From the NCBI RefSeq assembly GCF_000012285.1, contig NC_007181.1:960001-992000 (forward strand): a DNA stretch of 32,000 nt. Reading direction: 5' to 3'. This DNA is from Sulfolobus acidocaldarius DSM 639 (GTDB taxonomy: Archaea > Thermoproteota > Thermoprotei_A > Sulfolobales > Sulfolobaceae). Under the pieces are notes generated by a model. It was not told where the DNA came from. It searched no databases and saw nothing but the letters and a program-made list of their open reading frames with translations. Each line of letters opens with the position of its first letter. Positions within the stretch are counted from its first letter, which is position 1. Shown here in pieces: positions 7,901 to 27,056 of the stretch. Position numbers and translations under genes: made by a program.

Positions 7901-9610
7901 CTAACACTGTTGAAGATTTATCATCTTGTCTAGGAATTCCTCTAAAGGTAGAAGTTTGTAATCTTTTCCGCATTTAGCAGGTATCATAATCTTCAATTTT
8001 TCGAAGAGGTTATAGAGTCCTACTACTTTGTCTATATCCAATAATAACGGCAAAGGTCTCAGTACAACCCACACCTCGGTTACCTCATTTGTAATATTCT
8101 CATATTTAATACGCTTATATTTATTGTAAGCGTCAATTATTTCATCACCTGGCTCCTTTTCAATACTCGTCTTAGCATCTATGACTATATTTGAGTCTGA
8201 CACGTAGATATCTGGCACAACTCCTTCAATACGTGTCTCTACATGAATGTTTTCTGGCTTCACTCCTCGTTGTTGTATTAAATATCTTATTGCGACAGCT
8301 TTCATCTCCTTATGGTACTCAGATTCTTTTTCGCCAACTGATTCCACGTCCCACCACGGATAGGAGTTCTTTAGCCATTTACGGCTCTCACTCAATATTT
8401 CCTCAAAACTAGTATTTACATCCTTCATAGAGTCCCATCTATAAAGCACACTTACATCATTAACATTAAACCCTGAAGCGACATAAGCGATTTTCTGAAT
8501 TAGATCTTTGTTTACCTTATATACTTTTATAGGGCTTGGTAAGCCAGCTCCTCGTATAACATCAGCGTCAATAAATATTTTTGAGGGTTGACCACCTATC
8601 GTTTCTCTAAACCTATAATATAGGCATGAGGGCATAATGAGTATGGAAAACTGGTACCCCATAAGTCTTGATTCTAATACCTCCTTTACCTTGTCTTCAT
8701 CTTTATCTTCACGGACTGAACATAAGCTTTTATCTATCTTAAAGATACCAGGGTTACCCATCTGAGTTATATTGCCTAAGTTTATAGTTATTGGGTCAGG
8801 CTTAACTAGTAAACCACTTATTATTGCAATTTCCTCAGCAATCCTTTCTAACGAGTCTTCAATACCACGTTTATTTTCATCATAAACAATTACAATGACA
8901 CCATGTTTGGTCGATAATCCTGAGGAAAATGCACCAAGGAACTCTTTTATATCGTTAAGAATATTTATATCAATCTTTTTCTTAGGCTGAGTTAATGATG
9001 TCCTAACAACTTGAGGAGACTCATAAAGGCTAGGTTGTTCAACTCTCTCTTTTTCTGGACTAGTAGGCATTAAAGACTGTTGTACCCTAACTTTAAGATA
9101 AATTTCAGAATCAATAGAGCTAACTACAACTTGAGGTGGAATTGGGAACTGAAGAGATATTATTTGTGTACGCATAACACTGTCTCTTTTAACGCTAGCG
9201 CTTAGATAGTCTTCCATGTTTAATTCTGATAAAATCACTGATGGTGGAGGAGGAAAGTAAATAGGCACAATATTTGTTTCTCGTCTCTTTTGAACGAGCG
9301 ACGTTAGGTAGTTAGCAGTATCTAGACTTGAAGTGCTAACTTTAGGAGTACTTGGAAACGTTAAGGGTATGATCTTAACCTTTCTCATCTGGTCAAATTT
9401 CTGCTTTTTAACACTGGTTGAGGATTTTACATTTTCGGATGCAGAAAGTGTATTACTTTTTACGTCCTCTGTGCTCTTTACTTCAGGAGAGGTCACCGTA
9501 CTTTTCTCAATCTCCTCATAGTAAGCCTCTTCTTCCCTTCTTTGTTCAGTAGCTTTTTCCCTTTCCTTATCCGTATACATCACCATCCGATCACACTTCG
9601 TGGATCTCAC
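7901..9610 (-). CDS. Uncharacterised 569-aa protein: K/E/S-rich low-complexity N-terminus, three proline-motif repeats, a globular middle region and a C-terminal PD-(D/E)xK nuclease-like domain
   Basis: This is a long ORF. Its start is either GTG 9610, overlapping the upstream gene by 20 nt, or ATG 9586, 4 nt after the upstream stop. The C-terminal pattern is EKESEYHKEMKAVAIRYL..IHVETRIEGVVPDIYVSDSNIVIDAKTS, i.e. E / E / P-D / D-x-K with restriction-endonuclease-fold spacing. The codons for D467 (8210-8212) and D478-A-K480 (8171-8179) were checked on the sequence. Confidence 0.75.
   Translation of the reverse strand: MRSTKCDRMVMYTDKEREKATEQRREEEAYYEEIEKSTVTSPEVKSTEDVKSNTLSASENVKSSTSVKKQKFDQMRKVKIIPLTFPSTPKVSTSSLDTANYLTSLVQKRRETNIVPIYFPPPPSVILSELNMEDYLSASVKRDSVMRTQIISLQFPIPPQVVVSSIDSEIYLKVRVQQSLMPTSPEKERVEQPSLYESPQVVRTSLTQPKKKIDINILNDIKEFLGAFSSGLSTKHGVIVIVYDENKRGIEDSLERIAEEIAIISGLLVKPDPITINLGNITQMGNPGIFKIDKSLCSVREDKDEDKVKEVLESRLMGYQFSILIMPSCLYYRFRETIGGQPSKIFIDADVIRGAGLPSPIKVYKVNKDLIQKIAYVASGFNVNDVSVLYRWDSMKDVNTSFEEILSESRKWLKNSYPWWDVESVGEKESEYHKEMKAVAIRYLIQQRGVKPENIHVETRIEGVVPDIYVSDSNIVIDAKTSIEKEPGDEIIDAYNKYKRIKYENITNEVTEVWVVLRPLPLLLDIDKVVGLYNLFEKLKIMIPAKCGKDYKLLPLEEFLDKMINLQQC
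9077..9379 (-). repeat. Three tandem ~35-aa protein repeats inside the 569-aa ORF
   Basis: The repeats are KIIPLTFPSTPKVSTSSLDTANYLTSLVQK, NIVPIYFPPPPSVILSELNMEDYLSASVKR and QIISLQFPIPPQVVVSSIDSEIYLKVRVQQ. The consensus is I-[IV]-x-[LI]-x-F-P-x-x-P-x-V-x-x-S-x-[LI]-[DN]-x-x-x-Y-L. Confidence 0.8.
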
Positions 9611-10697
9611 GTTTAGGATCTAGCTCCATTATTATGGCATCTTGAGCAGTTGTAAACTTTAGATCATAATATAATAAGAGAGGTATTGAAAATTCTTCGA
9701 GCATTTCTATAAGGGTGTATGTTCTAGACCTATATTTAGCTTTATAAGCTTCACTATACGAATTATCACAAGTGATCTTAGAAGGATTCGATAAGGGTAT
9801 ATGGCACCTAACTGGGTTAGTCCAAAAAGCGAAATCTAATACTTCACTCAGATTTGAAGATGTAATGTAATAGCTAAGTAAAGATTCAAAGTCCTTTTCT
9901 ATGTTTCCATCCAGTCTTATAAACTCAGAACGAAAGTTTCGTAAAAAGTCATATGCCTGTTTATCTAGATCAGTAATATAACGACCTAAAGAGTTATCTG
10001 TGTAGCCATATATTGTATATCTTTCATCATTTAAGAACATCCTCAAAGGAACAACTCCAAATTTCCTAAACACACTATTCCTAATGCTCTTATCGTTCAA
10101 CTTATCATAAGCTTCTAGAAACGCCTTAAGAATATCACCTGTTAAAGAAGTTATGAAAAAAGTCCTAGGGTTATACACTGATGAAAATCTAGCTAGTGAT
10201 TCTAGTAGTTCTTTGAATGTATTAAAAACTCCATTTAAATCGCTTAAGGAAACTCTTTCTACTTCCCTTGGTCTAAAACCACTAGAGATTATAATTCTTT
10301 TAGATAAATCGTTGATTTCCCGGATATAATCTTTTATCGATTTAGAAAGCCGCATCTCCATCGGTTTCTTGCTTATAAGCCTTGCAACAATAGAAGTGCC
10401 TAACTGAAGTGATTGTAAATATGTACTGTAATCCATCGTTAGTCCAATAAAGTCAGCGTAAAACTTTGCACTGCTATTTTTTGTGTAGTCAAAGGAGCCA
10501 TCCTCATTTCTTGTGACACCTCCTAAAAGTATTCTCTTCAAGTTATCATCTAATTTATCATAAGTCAATTTAACAATCCTCTCAACTTGTTGGTATAGAT
10601 TAACAACCTTTGATGTTGTTTCATACACTTTCATTACATCTTCTTGTATGTACTGATCCCATGTTTCGTAATCTATATGAACCAACTCCCCACACAT
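9591..10697 (-). CDS. Uncharacterised 368-aa protein, first gene of the two-gene cassette
   Basis: The long ORF starts at ATG 10697 and has a TATA-like box about 25-30 nt upstream. It has no signal peptide or TM segment, and I recognise no catalytic motif (no P-loop, HEPN, helicase or methylase motifs). Confidence 0.7.
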   Translation of the reverse strand: MCGELVHIDYETWDQYIQEDVMKVYETTSKVVNLYQQVERIVKLTYDKLDDNLKRILLGGVTRNEDGSFDYTKNSSAKFYADFIGLTMDYSTYLQSLQLGTSIVARLISKKPMEMRLSKSIKDYIREINDLSKRIIISSGFRPREVERVSLSDLNGVFNTFKELLESLARFSSVYNPRTFFITSLTGDILKAFLEAYDKLNDKSIRNSVFRKFGVVPLRMFLNDERYTIYGYTDNSLGRYITDLDKQAYDFLRNFRSEFIRLDGNIEKDFESLLSYYITSSNLSEVLDFAFWTNPVRCHIPLSNPSKITCDNSYSEAYKAKYRSRTYTLIEMLEEFSIPLLLYYDLKFTTAQDAIIMELDPKREIHEV

Positions 10698-10720: not shown

Positions 10721-10734
10721 CATATAAATATTTT
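10721..10734 (-). promoter_or_regulatory. TATA-box-like element for the 368-aa/569-aa cassette
   Basis: The minus strand reads AAAATATTTATATG, centred about 30 nt upstream of ATG 10697. This geometry is typical of leaderless Sulfolobales mRNAs. Confidence 0.4.
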
Positions 10735-10904: not shown

Positions 10905-11173
10905 ATGGACATAACTTATAAGAGTACAACAGCCATTACGTCGTTAAGGTCGGTAAGGTTAGGGGAAGACAGGAGTATAAGTGTGTCAATTGTGGTAGGA
11001 AGTTTCTCGAAAATGCTAAGCATAGGTATCATAAGGAGGTTAGGGATTTGGCATTAAAGATGTATTCCAATGGTATGAGAACTAGGACTATAGCAAGGGT
11101 ATTAAATTACGAGGGGGTACTTTGTTCACTTGGATTAAGAGATAATGAAAACAATTTTCATACTTTTCAATAA
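10905..11173 (+). pseudogene. Decayed N-terminal remnant of a transposase gene (zinc-ribbon + HTH, IS1/InsA-like architecture)
   Basis: GGAGGT (10895-10900) precedes ATG 10905. The frame starting at 10922 reads EYNSHYVVKVGKVRGRQEYKCVNCGRKFLENAKHRYHKEVRDLALKMYSNGMRTRTIARVLN. A further shifted frame reads GTLFTWIKR*. Joining these pieces needs at least two frameshifts, the first CxxC appears lost, and no catalytic (DDE) part follows. Confidence 0.6.
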
Positions 11174-11286: not shown

Positions 11287-11874
11287 ATGGATCTACTAAG
11301 GATTAAAACTGACACTTATATCAAGGAATATTCGGACATTGAAAAATATATTGAACAATCGTTAGGCGGAAAATTTCCCTATGCGTTAAGTAAAACTAAA
11401 AGAATTATATTGTATGCGATAATAAAGGAGACTACGCCAAAGATTGCTATAGAGACGGGAGTAGGTCCCGGAGTATCATCAACCATAATCCTCTCAGCCT
11501 TACCTGAAGATTCTGTTCTTTACTCTATCGACGTGAGAAATAGGTTAGAAGACGGGAACGAAGTTGGATATATAATTCCACAAAAACTAAGGAAAAAGTG
11601 GAAATTCTTCCTTGGCGAGTCACGTCGTTTTTTACCTAAAATTCTCCAGGAGGTAAATGAGGTGAACTTCTTCCTTCATGATAGTGACCATAGTTATGAA
11701 AATGTGATGTTTGAACTCTCCACTATATGGTATAAGTTAAGTGAAGGTGGAGTGATATTGGTGGATAACTATAGGTTTAGTAATGCGACGATAGATTTTG
11801 TGAGTAGCAAAAAAGCGATATATTCTGAGCTGAGTGATGAAGCTGGAGGACTATTATTGATTTTAAAACCATAG
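11287..11874 (+). CDS. Class I SAM-dependent methyltransferase (small-molecule/O-methyltransferase-like, Methyltransf_24-type)
   Basis: It has the motif I sequence AIETGVGPGVSS, an acidic residue after beta-2 (LYSIDV), and FLHDSDHSYENV typical of this subfamily. There is no [DNS]PP[YFW] DNA-methylase motif. Confidence 0.65.
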   Translation: MDLLRIKTDTYIKEYSDIEKYIEQSLGGKFPYALSKTKRIILYAIIKETTPKIAIETGVGPGVSSTIILSALPEDSVLYSIDVRNRLEDGNEVGYIIPQKLRKKWKFFLGESRRFLPKILQEVNEVNFFLHDSDHSYENVMFELSTIWYKLSEGGVILVDNYRFSNATIDFVSSKKAIYSELSDEAGGLLLILKP

Positions 11875-11892
11875 AGCCAAAATATTTAAACC

Positions 11893-12582
11893 ATGAAACT
11901 AGTTGTAGGAAAATATGTCATAACTACTGACACACAGAACATTGGACAGCTATTAAACATACTGAACACATATAATGTAAAAGCTTTCAATTATAAAGTC
12001 AGGTTTATAGATGGAAAACTGACTGTAAACGTTGTAAAAGGAGATGTTATACTCTCCATAGAAAACTTAAGCCTATCTGAAGCAGAGTCCTTGCTCAAAG
12101 AGTCCACTGACGTAAATTTGAAGGATGACAGGTTTTCAATATTCTTCCACAATATGCCTACTAATCACGATATCATAAATAGACTTGAAAGTATTAAGCT
12201 ACCCTCATGTGTGGTACATTTTTATCGGGATAGAGTTAAGGTGAGAACACTGGACGGAATCTCGTTTGAAGACTCTTTAGACATGGAGGCAACTGAAGCG
12301 TTAAGCCTTATCATAGACAGGATCAAGACTCCCTTAGTTTTAGGTAAAATAAAGAGATATGAACATATGTACTTATACTCTTTGCTGAAGTCGTTCGGCA
12401 TAAGAGATCCTGAACTTATAGACAAGATAATGAGACAAAAATATGAAATAAGGGAGGAGAGGGATAAGAATGAAGTTGTAGTCATGGTCGGTGACTTCAA
12501 GATCAAAAAAGAAGGAGTTTACTTTAAAGATAAAGTAGTTAAAAAGACAGATCTGTATAAGTACTTTACGTCTAATTCTTAG
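11893..12582 (+). CDS. Hypothetical 229-aa protein, probably co-transcribed with the methyltransferase
   Basis: The ORF starts 18 nt after the methyltransferase stop on the same strand. It is soluble and K/E/D-rich, with no recognisable motif. Confidence 0.55.
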   Translation: MKLVVGKYVITTDTQNIGQLLNILNTYNVKAFNYKVRFIDGKLTVNVVKGDVILSIENLSLSEAESLLKESTDVNLKDDRFSIFFHNMPTNHDIINRLESIKLPSCVVHFYRDRVKVRTLDGISFEDSLDMEATEALSLIIDRIKTPLVLGKIKRYEHMYLYSLLKSFGIRDPELIDKIMRQKYEIREERDKNEVVVMVGDFKIKKEGVYFKDKVVKKTDLYKYFTSNS

Positions 12583-12699: not shown

Positions 12700-14583
12700 C
12701 TAACCCTTATTCGGTCTCCTCATTACCTCAAATTTACTTTTATTTACTCCAGGTGAGATCTTCACGTTACCATTTTCATGGAGAATTTGTGTACCATCAC
12801 CTAATTCTATCTTTCCGCTGTTCCCGTAAACATTCAGTGTGATTAAGCCATTTCCATAGGGTACAACTGAGTTATATCTTAAGAATAATGGGAAATCATG
12901 GTCACTCTCTATCCAGTTCTTTCCCTCATACTCTTCATCAGTCCACCAATTCAACCACTTCCCTTCAGGTAAATAGATCAGCCTTTTGCCTTCCTTATTA
13001 ATTTGTGGAGCGTAAAGCAAGTATTCTCCTACCATATACTGGTCATTTATCTTGAAGGCATTTTCGTCCCTGAAGTAATGATAAGCCAAAGGTCTTATAA
13101 TCGGATGACCTGTTTTAGAAGACTCTCTTGCTAATGCGTTCAGGTATGGTAGGAACTGATATCTCATCTTAATTACTCTCTTAATTTTTTCCTTCCAGTA
13201 ATCTGGTATTGAGTAAATTTCTTGATCACTCCCCCCTTTATCCTTGTGATTTCTGAAAATGGGGAAGAACAGTGCAATTTGGAAATACCTGTATAACAGG
13301 AGGTAGTCAGTTGTCCTACCTATGAATCCACCCAGATCACAGCCCACATATGGCACACCTGAAATTGACAGACCGAGAGTTAATGCAAGCTGAAGAGTTA
13401 AATCACTCCAACTGGTGGTGTTATCACCTGTCCATATAGCAGCATATCTCTGTATTCCTGAGTAACCGGCTCTGCTCAGAACAAAATCTACGGATGGCTT
13501 AGTAGCCATTGCTTGAAATAGAGAATATAGATTATGAACACTCTCATGATATACCTGTGAATTATCGTCTAGTCTATGAATAGCTCTAGGATTGAAGGGC
13601 TTTTTATTAAGAGGAGAAGGTTCATTCATGTCCAACCAAATTCCATCTATGTTGTTCTCTTTAACCCATTTCTCCACTAGGTTTCTCCACCACTCTCTTG
13701 TCTTGGAATTCAGAAAGTCTGGAAATACAGACAAGCCTGGCCATAGTATATCTGCGTAAATAGTCCCATCCTCGTTCTCCACATAGTTACCTAACCCATC
13801 CTTAAATACATGATAGTTTTGATCTAACCTCACACAAGGGTCAACTATAGTTACGACCTTAACCCCTAAGGAGTGAAGTTTTTCAATTAATTCCTTAGGA
13901 GATGGAAATTTTGCTTTATCCCATGTAAACAGTCTATACTTTTCCATATAATCTATGTCGAGATAGATTGCAGACAAGGGTATATCCTCTTCAAGGTGTC
14001 TCCTCACAACCTCCTCTACTGTCTCTTGCGGATAATAGGAGTATCTACTTATCTGGTAACCTAAAGCCCATTCAGGAAGTTCAAACGGTTTTCCTGTTAA
14101 TTCAACATAATGCTCAATTACCTCTTGTACGGAATCTCCCTCGAAGACAAAGAATTCAACACTCTCCTCAGGAATTTTTACTATAATTTTGTCGTATCTC
14201 TCTAACCCCATGTCAAAAACTAGTTTTGAGGGACTATTAAAGAAATATCCTTTTATCGAACTATCCACAAGTATAAAAAACGGTATGCTAACATACAGTG
14301 GGTCAGAATACCAAGTGTAACCATAAGAGTCTGTATTCCACATAGTAACTCTAGTTCTTCTTCTGTCAAGCTCGAACGCTTTTTCACCAAGTCCAAGAAC
14401 GTGGGTCTTTGTATTTAACGGTAGAAGGACGTTTATGGAATGACTTGTAGTATCTTTTGTTACTTCAATATCTGATGGTATCATTTCTGATTGATCTGCC
14501 TTAAAATTAAACTTAATAACTGGATTAGGGTTGTTTATGAGTACCCTTACTACCTTTCCTTTTCTCTCTGCTTTAATCTCCAC
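12700..14583 (-). CDS. malA: GH31 alpha-glucosidase (maltase)
   Basis: The 627-aa ORF has a GTG start, with an in-frame stop 2 codons upstream. It carries the GH31 nucleophile region DGIWLDMNEP plus AIWTGDN and GCDLGGF blocks. It is adjacent to malR and the mal transporter. Confidence 0.9.
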   Translation of the reverse strand: MEIKAERKGKVVRVLINNPNPVIKFNFKADQSEMIPSDIEVTKDTTSHSINVLLPLNTKTHVLGLGEKAFELDRRRTRVTMWNTDSYGYTWYSDPLYVSIPFFILVDSSIKGYFFNSPSKLVFDMGLERYDKIIVKIPEESVEFFVFEGDSVQEVIEHYVELTGKPFELPEWALGYQISRYSYYPQETVEEVVRRHLEEDIPLSAIYLDIDYMEKYRLFTWDKAKFPSPKELIEKLHSLGVKVVTIVDPCVRLDQNYHVFKDGLGNYVENEDGTIYADILWPGLSVFPDFLNSKTREWWRNLVEKWVKENNIDGIWLDMNEPSPLNKKPFNPRAIHRLDDNSQVYHESVHNLYSLFQAMATKPSVDFVLSRAGYSGIQRYAAIWTGDNTTSWSDLTLQLALTLGLSISGVPYVGCDLGGFIGRTTDYLLLYRYFQIALFFPIFRNHKDKGGSDQEIYSIPDYWKEKIKRVIKMRYQFLPYLNALARESSKTGHPIIRPLAYHYFRDENAFKINDQYMVGEYLLYAPQINKEGKRLIYLPEGKWLNWWTDEEYEGKNWIESDHDFPLFLRYNSVVPYGNGLITLNVYGNSGKIELGDGTQILHENGNVKISPGVNKSKFEVMRRPNKG

Positions 14584-14604
14584 ATTATGCTAATTGATTC
14601 TCTA

Positions 14605-14613
14605 ATTTAAATA
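14605..14613 (-). promoter_or_regulatory. TATA box of malA
   Basis: The minus strand reads TATTTAAAT, followed by 21 nt and then GTG 14583. Confidence 0.4.
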
Positions 14614-14710
14614 GTTATCACTATATCAAAATTTTTACTACAATTCATTATTAATTAAGATTTGGAGAGAAAAAAAGATTTAAAAATTCTAACAGAGCTT
14701 TTATATATAG

Positions 14711-15760
14711 ATGTTTGAAGTCAATGATGAGTTTATAGATGCCCTTACAGTATTGGGAATATCGAAGAAAGAAGCTTTAGTTTTTGCTTATCTAACTTAT
14801 AAAGGAGGAGCTACTGCTAAAGAGATGATATCTGACCTTTACATACATCAGCCTCAGCTTTACAATATACTTTTATCCCTAGAGAGGAAAGGTCTAATAT
14901 ATGTTCAGAACAGTAAGCCGAAATTCTACATCCCAGCAAGGTTAAACATAGTATTGGAAAAGATAGACCAAGAGCAGACAAAGAGAAAACATGTTATTCT
15001 GGAACAGATCAAAAAGCTTGAAACTAATCACAGGAAATCTCAGGGAATGATGTGGATGACAAAGAGCACTGAAAACGTATTGAACAACTGTATATCTGTT
15101 ATTACGAGTGCTAAAAATGAGTTATACGTTGAAATTCCTAATAACTACCTTCAGAAGCTAATCAGCTACATTATTAAGGTTGCAGAGTCAGGCGTGAAAA
15201 CTTATCTAAATATTTATCCTAATGTGGATGAGTTTCTAGTGAACAAGTTATTGGAAAGTAAAGTGATGGAAGTAAAGGTACATTCTTTAGGACACTTTTT
15301 CTTGGTATCTGCTGATGCAGAGGAAAGCGTGTTTATGCCGAGAGTCATGAGCCTCTCGACGAATCCTAACATTTACAGTTATGTCTTTAGAGACTCGACA
15401 ATGAGTCTTTTCTTCATTCACTACTATTTCGAAGGATGGAGGACATCTAGGACTGTTTACAGGAAAGCTGTGACACAAAGTGATTTCCCTATGATATTTA
15501 GTGCCCATAGATTTGCTACATGGGAGATCATGAAGGCTAAAGAGCAGGGATTAAGATTAAAGGTAAAGGTGGATGGTGTAATAACCAGGACAGGAGAAAA
15601 TGTTGAGTTATTTGGTTATCCCAATAACGTTAATATCAGTAGTGAAGTGATTAATTTCGAATTAGTAGAGGAAAGGAGTGGTAGGAGTTACCTCATAGGA
15701 GGAGATAATGCACTCGTGGAGGACGTCTCAGCTGAAAAAATAGAAGTTTATACTCAATAA
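14711..15760 (+). CDS. malR: TrmB-family sugar-responsive transcription regulator (maltose regulon activator MalR)
   Basis: The N-terminal TrmB-type winged HTH is LGISKKEALVFAYLTYKGGATAKEMISDLYIHQPQLYNILLSLERKGLIYV. The C-terminal sugar-binding-type domain gives a length of 349 aa. The gene is divergent from malA and next to the mal transporter, as in the S. acidocaldarius mal regulon (from memory). Confidence 0.85.
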   Translation: MFEVNDEFIDALTVLGISKKEALVFAYLTYKGGATAKEMISDLYIHQPQLYNILLSLERKGLIYVQNSKPKFYIPARLNIVLEKIDQEQTKRKHVILEQIKKLETNHRKSQGMMWMTKSTENVLNNCISVITSAKNELYVEIPNNYLQKLISYIIKVAESGVKTYLNIYPNVDEFLVNKLLESKVMEVKVHSLGHFFLVSADAEESVFMPRVMSLSTNPNIYSYVFRDSTMSLFFIHYYFEGWRTSRTVYRKAVTQSDFPMIFSAHRFATWEIMKAKEQGLRLKVKVDGVITRTGENVELFGYPNNVNISSEVINFELVEERSGRSYLIGGDNALVEDVSAEKIEVYTQ

Positions 15761-15798
15761 AAAAGATTTTTTACCTTATATTTTAGTTATAAATTATG

Positions 15799-25725: not shown

Positions 25726-26256
25726 ATGGAAGTTGCAACTTTAGGCGGAGGTTGCTTCTGGTGCACAGAAGCAGTGTTTAAGAGAGTTAAAGGTGTAGTA
25801 AGTGTTAAACCGGGTTATTCCGGTGGAAAAGTTCCAAATCCAACTTATGAAGAAGTATGCACAGACGAGACAGGACATGCTGAGGTAGTCCAGATAACCT
25901 TCGATCCCTCAGTCATCACATATAGGGAATTGCTCGAGATATTTTTTGAAATTCATGATCCAACTACACCCAATAGACAAGGTAATGATGTAGGCTCTCA
26001 ATACAGATCAATAATACTCTATCATAGTGAGGAACAGAAGAAGATCGCCGAGGAGATGATTAAGCTTTACGAGAGGAAGTTAGGTAAAAAGGTCGTTACC
26101 GAGTTAGTACCTTTTGAAGCATTTTATGAGGCTGAGGATTATCATCATGACTTTTACGACAAGCACAAGAATTATCCCTATTGCAAATTAGTTATTGACC
26201 CTAAAGTAAAGAAATTTATGAAAAACTTCCCAGATAAGGCTTCAATAAGGATCTAA
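25726..26256 (+). CDS. msrA: Peptide-methionine (S)-S-oxide reductase
   Basis: It has the MsrA active site [12 protein letters not shown], plus [12 protein letters not shown] and [11 protein letters not shown]. The ORF is open from ATG 25690, but the family N-terminus fits ATG 25726 ([12 protein letters not shown]). Confidence 0.85.
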
Positions 26257-27056
26257 TGCACTGTACTGTTAATAGAATAGTGGTTGATTTATAAATGACT
26301 TTGTAAATAGATTATAAACTCAAGTGAATAAAAATTTTTAATCTTTTGATTTATGCTCCTTTCTTATACTATATTTATTAATTTATCGACACTGTATCAT
26401 TAAAATATTTTGAATGTGCACTTTTATACATATAAGAGACCATGTTATTGGCATTCAAAAATATTTAGTCATTGAAAATTGTGCTAAAACCCTGGTTTAA
26501 GGAGGATCTAGATGTTGAAAAAACTACAAAATAGTGATTTAGTTAGTTCGAGTCTTGACAGATTTTTTTAATTAATTACAACAAATTATACAATATTATA
26601 ATAGAGTAGGTAGGTGAACCTGGATTACTAATAGATTAGGGGGTAAATATTAAAAGCCTCAATTTTCTACCAACTATTTTCATGTAATAATATTTAAATA
26701 CATGTAAATTGAAAAACCGTTTACTTAAACTTTTTAAAACACTCCCAGAGGGATAGGGGCTAACAAGAGCAAATAATTTTTATCTGTATGTTCTAAAAAT
26801 TAAAGTAAAAATGATTTTTATAGTTGGAAATTTTCTAGTTCCTTGCAACTCTGTAGTATTATATAAGTATTGACGTGAATTTTGCGTTTAGTGAAATCAC
26901 GTAGAGCCGAATTTTGTACGCTTTTCAAACGTTAAACCTATATTAGAGTAAAAATAACAGCAGGGAATTCACAGGAGAGTTAAGCTTTCGGCCAAGATTT
27001 TAGGTGGTTATTATTTTTTATATTAATTAACCTTAAAAAGGACTAAAATTTTTACG

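Follow-up and report, generated by a model that had tools for sequence, protein, structure and literature searches.

What two adjacent, jointly transcribed genes of the crenarchaeal chromosome of Sulfolobus acidocaldarius DSM 639, Saci_1157 and Saci_1156, might encode is the question raised by the stretch of 32 000 nucleotides analysed here (NC_007181.1, positions 960001–992000; hereafter the window, in whose positions all coordinates of this locus are given). In RefSeq both products are listed alike as hypothetical proteins whose function is unknown. Gene A (Saci_1157, SACI_RS05510, Q4J9M6) occupies 9591–10697 on the minus strand and encodes 368 aa, and gene B (Saci_1156, SACI_RS05505, Q4J9M7) occupies 7901–9586 on the same strand and encodes 561 aa as annotated. 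Our best explanation, unproven and held with slightly less than even confidence, is that A and B form a chromosomal two-component nuclease module which defends its host against mobile elements; the nuclease activity, the contact between A and B and the defence role are what we infer, and the grounds for each are set out below.

The two long minus-strand open reading frames (ORFs) reported by a first-pass annotation of the window were found as described, at 9591–10697 (368 aa) and, when read from a GTG codon, at 7901–9610 (569 aa). For gene B that annotation had left two starts open, of which ATG 9586 is the one used in RefSeq (561 aa), separated from the TGA of gene A (9591–9593) by a spacer of 4 nt (9587–9590, minus strand), whereas the longest form, starting at GTG 9610 (569 aa), was unsupported by homologue alignments. 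An alternative gene call places the start at ATG 9580 (559 aa), directly 5′ of which the sequence reads GGTGA, and as the homologue alignment begins at this codon, GTG 9610 can serve only as an upper bound for the start of B. A TATA-like box had been placed about 30 nt upstream of ATG 10697; indeed, the element AATATTTATAT was read from the sequence at 10722–10733 on the minus strand, with TTTATAT at around 10722–10728, some 28 nt 5′ of the start codon of gene A. We take it to be the promoter on account of the usual spacing of Sulfolobus promoters, and its distance from the ATG fits a leaderless archaeal transcript.

Published data sets showed that both genes are strongly expressed. Both proteins were detected by tandem mass tag mass spectrometry, with abundances at 75 °C of ∼850–1050 for B and ∼980–1170 for A, and upon heat shock their transcripts dropped in parallel, with log2 fold changes at 15, 30 and 60 min of −0.94, −0.81 and −1.16 for B and of −0.80, −1.02 and −1.36 for A (PMC10653856, Data Set S2). 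An independent re-analysis gave DESeq2 baseMean values of 11336 and 11686 for the pair and lower ones, 1256 and 5246, for the genes flanking it (PMC12817955, File S2). The two genes are assigned to one predicted operon, Op635, and are listed in the gene-annotation tables of iModulon supplements, while a literature search found no mention of Saci_1156, Saci_1157 or the locus tags of their homologues in the text of any paper. Shared operon prediction, equal transcript levels and adjacency in about 56 independent loci bear out the earlier proposal that the two genes form one unit, and Saci_1157/Saci_1156 is a real, jointly expressed operon. The same data speak for a different explanation, which we regard as unlikely though serious, namely that A–B serves the DNA metabolism of the host, for instance as a nuclease of repair, recombination, replication restart or chromatin processing accompanied by a helical protein, and has no part in immunity: the transcripts are abundant and equal, both proteins are present under standard growth, and both genes go down on heat shock as does the Orc1/Cdc6-3 (cdc6-3) transcript in the same table. 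What stands against it comes from the distribution of the pair, to which we return below.

The last 355 residues of B were modelled with AlphaFold2 (AF2), which yielded two domains with a mean predicted local distance difference test score (pLDDT) of 85.8 and a predicted template modelling score of 0.87. The C-terminal one (7904–8341, minus strand) follows the order alpha 217–232, beta 241–243, 254–256 and 261–266, alpha 273–285 and beta 298–303 in model numbering, and thus matches the alpha-beta-beta-beta-alpha-beta core of PD-(D/E)xK nucleases. Such a core with motif residues placed as in B is the canonical layout of these enzymes. The first-pass annotation had pointed to a C-terminal E…E…PD…DxK pattern, and the pattern is present: E450 on beta1 (8237–8239), P458–D459 on beta2 (D at 8210–8212), and D470 (8177–8179) and K472 (8171–8173) on beta3, to which H425 on helix alpha1 (8312–8314) is to be added, all on the minus strand. 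The residues D467 and K480 of that annotation, numbered on the 569-aa form, correspond to the PD aspartate D459 and the DxK lysine K472.

Conservation of these positions was counted over 188 B-like proteins of at least 450 aa, and the site proved to be nearly invariant. The helix alpha1 His is found in 188/188, the Asp of PD in 187/188, an acidic residue on beta3 in 182/188, a Lys or Glu at the third triad position likewise in 182/188 (40 Lys, 142 Glu), and the beta1 Glu in 175/188. In 148 of these proteins Glu or Asp stands in the place of the triad Lys, and a Lys on helix alpha1 is then invariably retained; conversely, the alpha1 Lys is missing in 17, every one of which has the triad Lys, so that none of the 188 is without both, although these counts track clades and do not represent independent events. 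The S. acidocaldarius protein carries both, K429 on helix alpha1 and K472 on beta3. An active site whose lysine had been relocated would look like this, and from model and conservation together we infer that the C-terminal domain of B is a metal-dependent PD-(D/E)xK nuclease of the restriction-endonuclease fold. Two non-significant matches point the same way, that of the model to the CARF nuclease Card1 (see below) and the single Pfam signal of the motif region, to PF15518 (L_protein_N, the bunyavirus L-protein endonuclease; E 0.16).

One may argue instead that the domain keeps the fold but is non-catalytic and serves as a DNA-binding or scaffold module, which would make the pair structural or regulatory. 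The Glu that stands for the canonical triad Lys in 142 of the 188 proteins would suit such a loss, as would the lack of any significant match to a characterized nuclease. However, residues of the metal-ligand type (His, Glu, Asp and Asp/Glu) have remained almost perfectly conserved over deep divergence, and no protein without the beta3 Lys lacks the one on alpha1, as expected for a site under selection, and we give this explanation the lowest probability of all those considered.

The globular middle region that had been noted in B is represented in the AF2 model by a central Rossmann-like alpha/beta domain with a helical segment (8354–8968, minus strand), in which beta and alpha elements alternate at model residues 24–202. 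Its conserved VYDExK, PSC and IGG(K) loops come after predicted beta-strands in the close clade. An assignment of this domain to the AAA+/P-loop ATPases was rejected, as the Walker A motif (GxxxxGK[ST]) is absent from B, and it was found in only 1/188 B-like proteins. Foldseek searches with the model returned weak matches to Card1 and to AAA+ cores, and the top PDB match was Card1 (6wxw_A; E 1.6e-3, probability 0.72, TM 0.23).

Card1 and Can2 combine a CARF domain with a PD-(D/E)xK nuclease, and their activators are the cyclic oligoadenylates of type III CRISPR systems. By analogy, B could sense a cyclic oligonucleotide by binding it in the middle domain, a divergent form of CARF, and thereby activate its nuclease, with A making, degrading or relaying the signal. 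The Foldseek match extends to the order of the domains, conserved loop residues come after the predicted beta-strands in the close clade, and Csx1 occurs among the sampled neighbours of the pair (2/148). Yet the match is marginal and AAA+ cores score almost equally, Pfam searches with 19 close and 80 distant members of the B family hit no CARF family, and the profile match of most distant relatives covers the C-terminal nuclease region only. Moreover, neither cas genes, cas10 among them, nor cyclase genes are found repeatedly next to the pair, and A has neither a nucleotidyltransferase-like motif nor an invariant column in its alignment. We therefore consider this explanation very improbable, and membership of B in the Card1-type CARF nucleases is not supported.

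B was found to be modular, as the first-pass annotation had proposed. Its low-complexity N-terminal head, rich in K, E, S and T (residues 1 to ∼71; 9374–9586, minus strand), is weakly conserved in the homologue alignment and probably disordered, the first 210 residues of the protein being composed of 13% S, 10% V, 9.5% E and 9% K. There follow three tandem proline-motif repeats (9077–9373, minus strand) of 29 residues each, at 72–100, 106–134 and 142–170 of the 561-aa form (9287–9373, 9185–9271 and 9077–9163), with the consensus hhPLxFPxPPxVxVSSLDxExYL. The repeats are real, as their pairwise local scores of 52–59 compare with 20 ± 4.4 for shuffled sequences, none of 1000 shuffles scoring as high. 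With a hidden Markov model (HMM) of the repeat, two to four copies were detected in 25/188 B-like proteins, those checked being members of the Sulfolobales clade, and distant relatives carry different proline-containing, low-complexity tails. Long forms of B (760–896 aa; P0035, P0038, P0042, P0044 and P0046) possess an additional N-terminal region of about 450–520 aa. The idea that these are A–B fusions gained no support from hmmsearch and hhalign comparisons with A profiles (E 0.11–0.19, probability <1%); homology of the region to A is thus not shown. In the only long-form locus that was inspected, that of P0044 from Acidianus copahuensis (L019:8001–10691), no A gene lies upstream, which suggests a fused or substituted partner, although the similarity to A is not significant.

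Protein A, in turn, gave an AF2 model with a pLDDT of 81.7 that is mainly helical with small beta elements. Foldseek found no match for it in the PDB (best E 0.2) or in BFVD (best E 0.05), and a confident model with no counterpart in either collection may represent a new fold. Sequence searches against Pfam and the PDB were likewise negative, even with a profile of 45 A-like sequences. In the alignment of this superfamily not a single column is invariant, the nearly invariant positions being three Gly, one Tyr and one Pro; the Walker A motif is missing from A, and 0/45 A-like proteins carry GxxxxGK[ST]. As A relatives share no invariant column and match no known sequence or fold, A is probably not an enzyme but a non-enzymatic partner. 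The remark of the first-pass annotation that the pair has no ATPase motif was correct for both proteins, and no ATPase, helicase or methyltransferase accompanies them as a partner.

Close homologues of the S. acidocaldarius proteins, all of them hypothetical, comprise 14 A clusters and 19 B clusters from Sulfolobaceae isolates, metagenome-assembled genomes (MAGs) and hot-spring metagenomes. All six Sulfolobales-type contexts, namely S. acidocaldarius, Sulfolobus sp. S-194, Metallosphaera tengchongensis, a Sulfolobaceae MAG and two metagenomic lineages, showed A (354–370 aa) followed by B (508–578 aa) with different neighbours each time, the distance from A to B being about 4–12 nt in database gene calls. 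Over the homologous loci in which we called the ORFs ourselves, the gap or overlap was −98 to +18 nt. An exhaustive HMMER search with a B profile extended the family to 162 representative clusters at E ≤ 1e-3, most of which share the C-terminal domain only, and which include Ignisphaera aggregans (Igag_0717) as well as Desulfurococcaceae and Caldisphaeraceae MAGs. In I. aggregans, the B relative is directly preceded by a 475-aa gene that the A profile hits (E 8e-16). A metagenome scan with a 10-sequence alignment added 80 further loci, in 70 of which the upstream ORF could be assessed; ORF and HMM analysis detected an A gene directly 5′ of B and in the same orientation in 50 of these 70. In several of the other 20 there is either an adjacent same-strand ORF of 300–490 aa which forms a cluster of its own and is probably a more divergent A, or an ORF of ∼211 aa between A and B, or an ORF cut by the contig end. 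On this evidence (6/6 Sulfolobales-type contexts, Ignisphaera and 50/70 metagenome loci) the A–B pair is co-conserved at great evolutionary depth. Duplicate A-like genes were seen in some loci, where they stand in tandem upstream of B or flank it on both sides (L093:617–1732 and 1734–2879; L088:8858–10120; L090:10066–11328).

The distribution of the pair is patchy. A close-pattern scan of 185 579 species genomes yielded only four loci, and the named isolates that carry the pair are scattered species, one of which, Acidianus manzaensis, has two B relatives. No relatives of A or B were present in 50 697 phage records or 72 556 plasmid records, a pattern scan of 2.9 million IMG/VR contigs found none of the family, a PHROGs search with both proteins gave nothing significant, and around the S. 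acidocaldarius cassette no flanking inverted or direct repeats were detected beyond matches of a size expected by chance. Without viral or plasmid relatives and without terminal repeats, the pair is best regarded as a cellular module and not as a relic of an integrated plasmid or virus, which the first-pass annotation had listed as an alternative and which is thus disfavoured. The lack of terminal repeats likewise spoke against a transposon.

These observations also bear on the idea that A–B is a selfish addiction module, in which the toxicity of the nuclease B would be countered by A as antidote, and which would persist through horizontal transfer while its host gains nothing. Its two genes are compact and abut or overlap, its contexts are variable and mobile, near insertion sequence (IS) elements and other toxin–antitoxin pairs, and a partner whose relatives have no invariant column would suit a neutralizing binder. 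On the other hand, proteins of 368 and 561 aa with a modular build are unlike typical toxin–antitoxin pairs, the putative antidote is encoded upstream and its transcript is as abundant as that of B, and neither a carrier element nor terminal repeats nor plasmid or virus copies were found. Furthermore, the pair has been retained in S. acidocaldarius, its sequences being seen on >200 contigs of this species. An addiction module is therefore decidedly unlikely in our estimate.

The neighbours of the pair across the sampled loci include mobile-type genes (an IS110 transposase, PaREP1), toxin–antitoxin genes (VapBC, MazE, a DUF3368/UPF0175 pair) and other conflict-type genes (a phospholipase D (PLD)-like protein, AAA_15/OLD-type ATPases, Csx1 and a type II methyltransferase). 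Of these, the prokaryotic Argonaute (pAgo) of Ignisphaera described below, the OLD-type ATPases, Csx1, a TIR-like protein and the toxin–antitoxin pairs are of the defence type and speak for a module directed against mobile elements; PADLOC models of Csx1 match 2/148 and those of type II methyltransferases 1/148 of the neighbours sampled. A defence role is plausible, and it is solely the patchy distribution, the changing neighbourhoods and the presence of some defence genes nearby that make it so. Several points weigh against it. Most of the 148 neighbours, taken as a raw sample, are housekeeping or metabolic genes or are unannotated; the outer flanks in S. acidocaldarius are ordinary metabolic genes; none of 5027 PADLOC models (PADLOC-DB v2) matched either protein at E values up to 1; no sequence or fold match of B to a known nuclease reaches statistical significance; and strong constitutive expression would suit a housekeeping function just as well.

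The last of these points leads back to the host DNA-metabolism factor, which gains further from the chromosomal position of the pair with metabolic genes on either side in S. acidocaldarius, from its age and wide occurrence in Thermoproteota (the 162 clusters) and from its absence from virus and plasmid collections. A factor of this kind would hardly be expected, however, to be as patchily distributed as the close-pattern scan indicates, to lie in a different neighbourhood in every genome, to occur in paralogues (the two B genes of A. manzaensis, the tandem A genes) or to have an N-terminal tail that diverges as fast as that of B.

If A and B are indeed a defence module, the following mechanism may be envisaged. 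The operon, which we regard as accessory and horizontally shuffled, is chromosomal, constitutively expressed and widespread in thermophilic Thermoproteota. B would be the effector, acting through the His…Glu…Pro-Asp…(Asp/Glu)-x-(Lys/Glu) site; its Rossmann-like middle domain, which has no ATPase motifs, would most likely serve oligomerization or regulation, and its N-terminal tail with the proline-motif repeats would most likely offer several docking sites at once. For A, the most likely part is that of a protein which binds B, perhaps at these repeats, as a sensor, a targeting subunit or an inhibitor. The most likely role of the whole would be in conflict with mobile genetic elements, as innate defence through DNA cleavage.

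Two further genes recur beside the pair in metagenome loci. One, of ∼268 aa, lies on the same strand in 11 loci, and is absent from the S. acidocaldarius cassette; it was located downstream of B (L072:4329–5135, L062:4139–4945, L079:6644–7441, L098:4262–5113 and L069:5607–6164) or upstream of A (L052:1069–1887, L063:4857–5672 and L066:977–1798). The protein starts with M-T-L and has an invariant Thr2, Asp19, Lys33 and a G-x-G-x-x-T-G-G stretch; 6/8 members scanned match Pfam Proteasome (best E 3e-06), a PDB profile search gave no match, and judged by its sequence it looks like a divergent proteasome-beta/HslV-like peptidase. The other encodes a protein of ∼211 aa for which neither Pfam nor the PDB gave a match, and is a further operon member in 10 loci of the distant (ExE) clade, where it lies upstream of A (L057:5956–6603, L088:4775–5401, L098:624–1271 and L084:3523–4176) or directly 5′ of B (L022:2450–3094, L024:715–1350 and L070:1754–2389), in L022 and L070 as an insertion between A and B. 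A more far-reaching and rather doubtful proposal would unite all these elements: Saci_1157/Saci_1156 might be the founding and tractable example of an unrecognized immune system widespread in Thermoproteota, in which an orphan-fold helical sensor, A, controls a His-type PD-(D/E)xK nuclease, B, via a multivalent proline-repeat tail, and to which some lineages add the proteasome-like peptidase and the 211-aa protein, pointing to regulation by proteolysis.

Other neighbours are confined to single lineages. In I. aggregans the pair has a pAgo (Piwi) gene on one side and, directly downstream on the other, a GHKL ATPase gene (L017:3549–6014, minus strand, and L017:9832–12708, plus strand). The ATPase (948–958 aa, HATPase_c_3/SACS), whose C-terminus reads like a small endonuclease motif (GWDI…VEVKG), was dismissed as a third component of the cassette, as it occurs in the Ignisphaera locus only. 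A protein with a Zn-ribbon and a TIR_2-like domain is encoded directly upstream of A in one metagenomic lineage (L044:3302–4195; L038:1–732, L043:1430–2320 and L045:1–336), its TIR_2 match of 26.6 bits being slightly below the Pfam cut-off of 28 bits.

In S. acidocaldarius itself, a decayed transposase gene had been described beside the pair, and a truncated remnant with a Zn-finger and a helix-turn-helix was confirmed outside the cassette at ∼10930–11170 on the plus strand, where the frame-3 translation includes YKCVNCGRKFLENAKHRYHKEVRDLALKMYSNGMRTRTIARVL. It has internal stops and no clear start, and is the sole mobile trace at this locus; judged by eye, it is probably IS1 InsA-like. SACI_RS12055 (baseMean 67), listed between Saci_1157 and Saci_1158, is probably this remnant, to judge from its position in the list. 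Beyond it, divergent from the cassette, lie Saci_1158, a class I S-adenosylmethionine-dependent methyltransferase (Methyltransf_24), and Saci_1159 (229 aa; together 11287–12582, plus strand), neither of which is kept beside the pair in other genomes. The surroundings had been called an islet of orphan genes, which holds for Saci_1159, as it has no Pfam match, but not for the methyltransferase Saci_1158 or the metabolic outer flanks. Positions 12700–23038 harbour the maltose regulon with MalA GH31 (Saci_1160), a TrmB-type regulator, a GH57 enzyme and ABC transporter genes; MalA, three genes from the pair, anchors the locus-tag numbering. Dips in composition were seen at 23001–24000 (GC content 0.318, GC skew −0.32) and at 26001–27000 (GC content 0.295).

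According to a recent survey, Thermoproteota are generally poorer in known defence systems, with the exception of CRISPR-Cas, restriction-modification and Argonautes (PMC12988326). Given this low prevalence and the existence of >160 diverged and unannotated protein clusters, the A–B module, which is specific to archaea, is a good candidate for filling the gap. Should it not serve defence, it would still be an uncharacterized, abundantly expressed predicted nuclease complex in a model archaeon, and since markerless deletion and expression tools exist for S. acidocaldarius, the hypotheses are directly testable there.

It remains to compare the pair with known families and systems. Pfam, NCBIfam and PADLOC searches with A and B gave nothing significant, Pfam found nothing consistent in the 19 close B, 80 distant B and 45 A-like members, and sequence and profile searches of the PDB had no match for the A or B alignments; the earlier statement that the pair fits no named system was thereby sustained. 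The first-pass annotation had seen in it the design of Shedu-type nucleases. The likeness to Shedu (SduA), a C-terminal PD-(D/E)xK-type effector domain behind a variable N-terminal region, stands as an architectural one only, whereas the family itself is not matched: B has no Pfam or PADLOC match to Shedu/DUF4263 at E values up to 1, nor have the 19 close members at up to 10, and Shedu is a single-gene system in contrast to B, which is accompanied by A in ∼56 loci. Thus, the A–B pair is not Shedu. Restriction-modification was rejected as well, as Saci_1158 is divergently transcribed and its methyltransferase does not recur in other loci.

To the PD-(D/E)xK nucleases at large, B is linked by its predicted core, with the His on the helix, the Glu on beta1, PD on beta2 and (D/E)x(K/E) on beta3. 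With Card1 and Can2 it shares an alpha/beta domain followed by a nuclease domain of similar size over its last 355 residues, and differs from them by the obligatory upstream partner gene and the long repeat-bearing tail, both missing in Card1. Closest in kind to B are the cap-snatching endonucleases of viruses (influenza PA-N, the N-terminus of bunyavirus L), which represent a His-containing variant of PD-(D/E)xK, and the H…E…PD…ExK pattern matches that of PA-N. Unlike these viral enzymes, B belongs to a cellular organism, an archaeon, is accompanied by a partner protein and carries two additional N-terminal modules; most of its relatives, moreover, have a Glu in place of the triad Lys, together with a Lys on helix alpha1. 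Finally, two-gene defence cassettes composed of a nuclease and a partner resemble A–B in their compact operon, patchy distribution and variable neighbourhoods with some defence genes, and the catalogued ones differ in that A and B are matched by none of the PADLOC models and have no ATPase, helicase or methyltransferase partner. What would be new here is a PD-(D/E)xK-type effector with an obligatory orphan partner, predicted from two protein families that lack annotation and have members in a tractable model organism.

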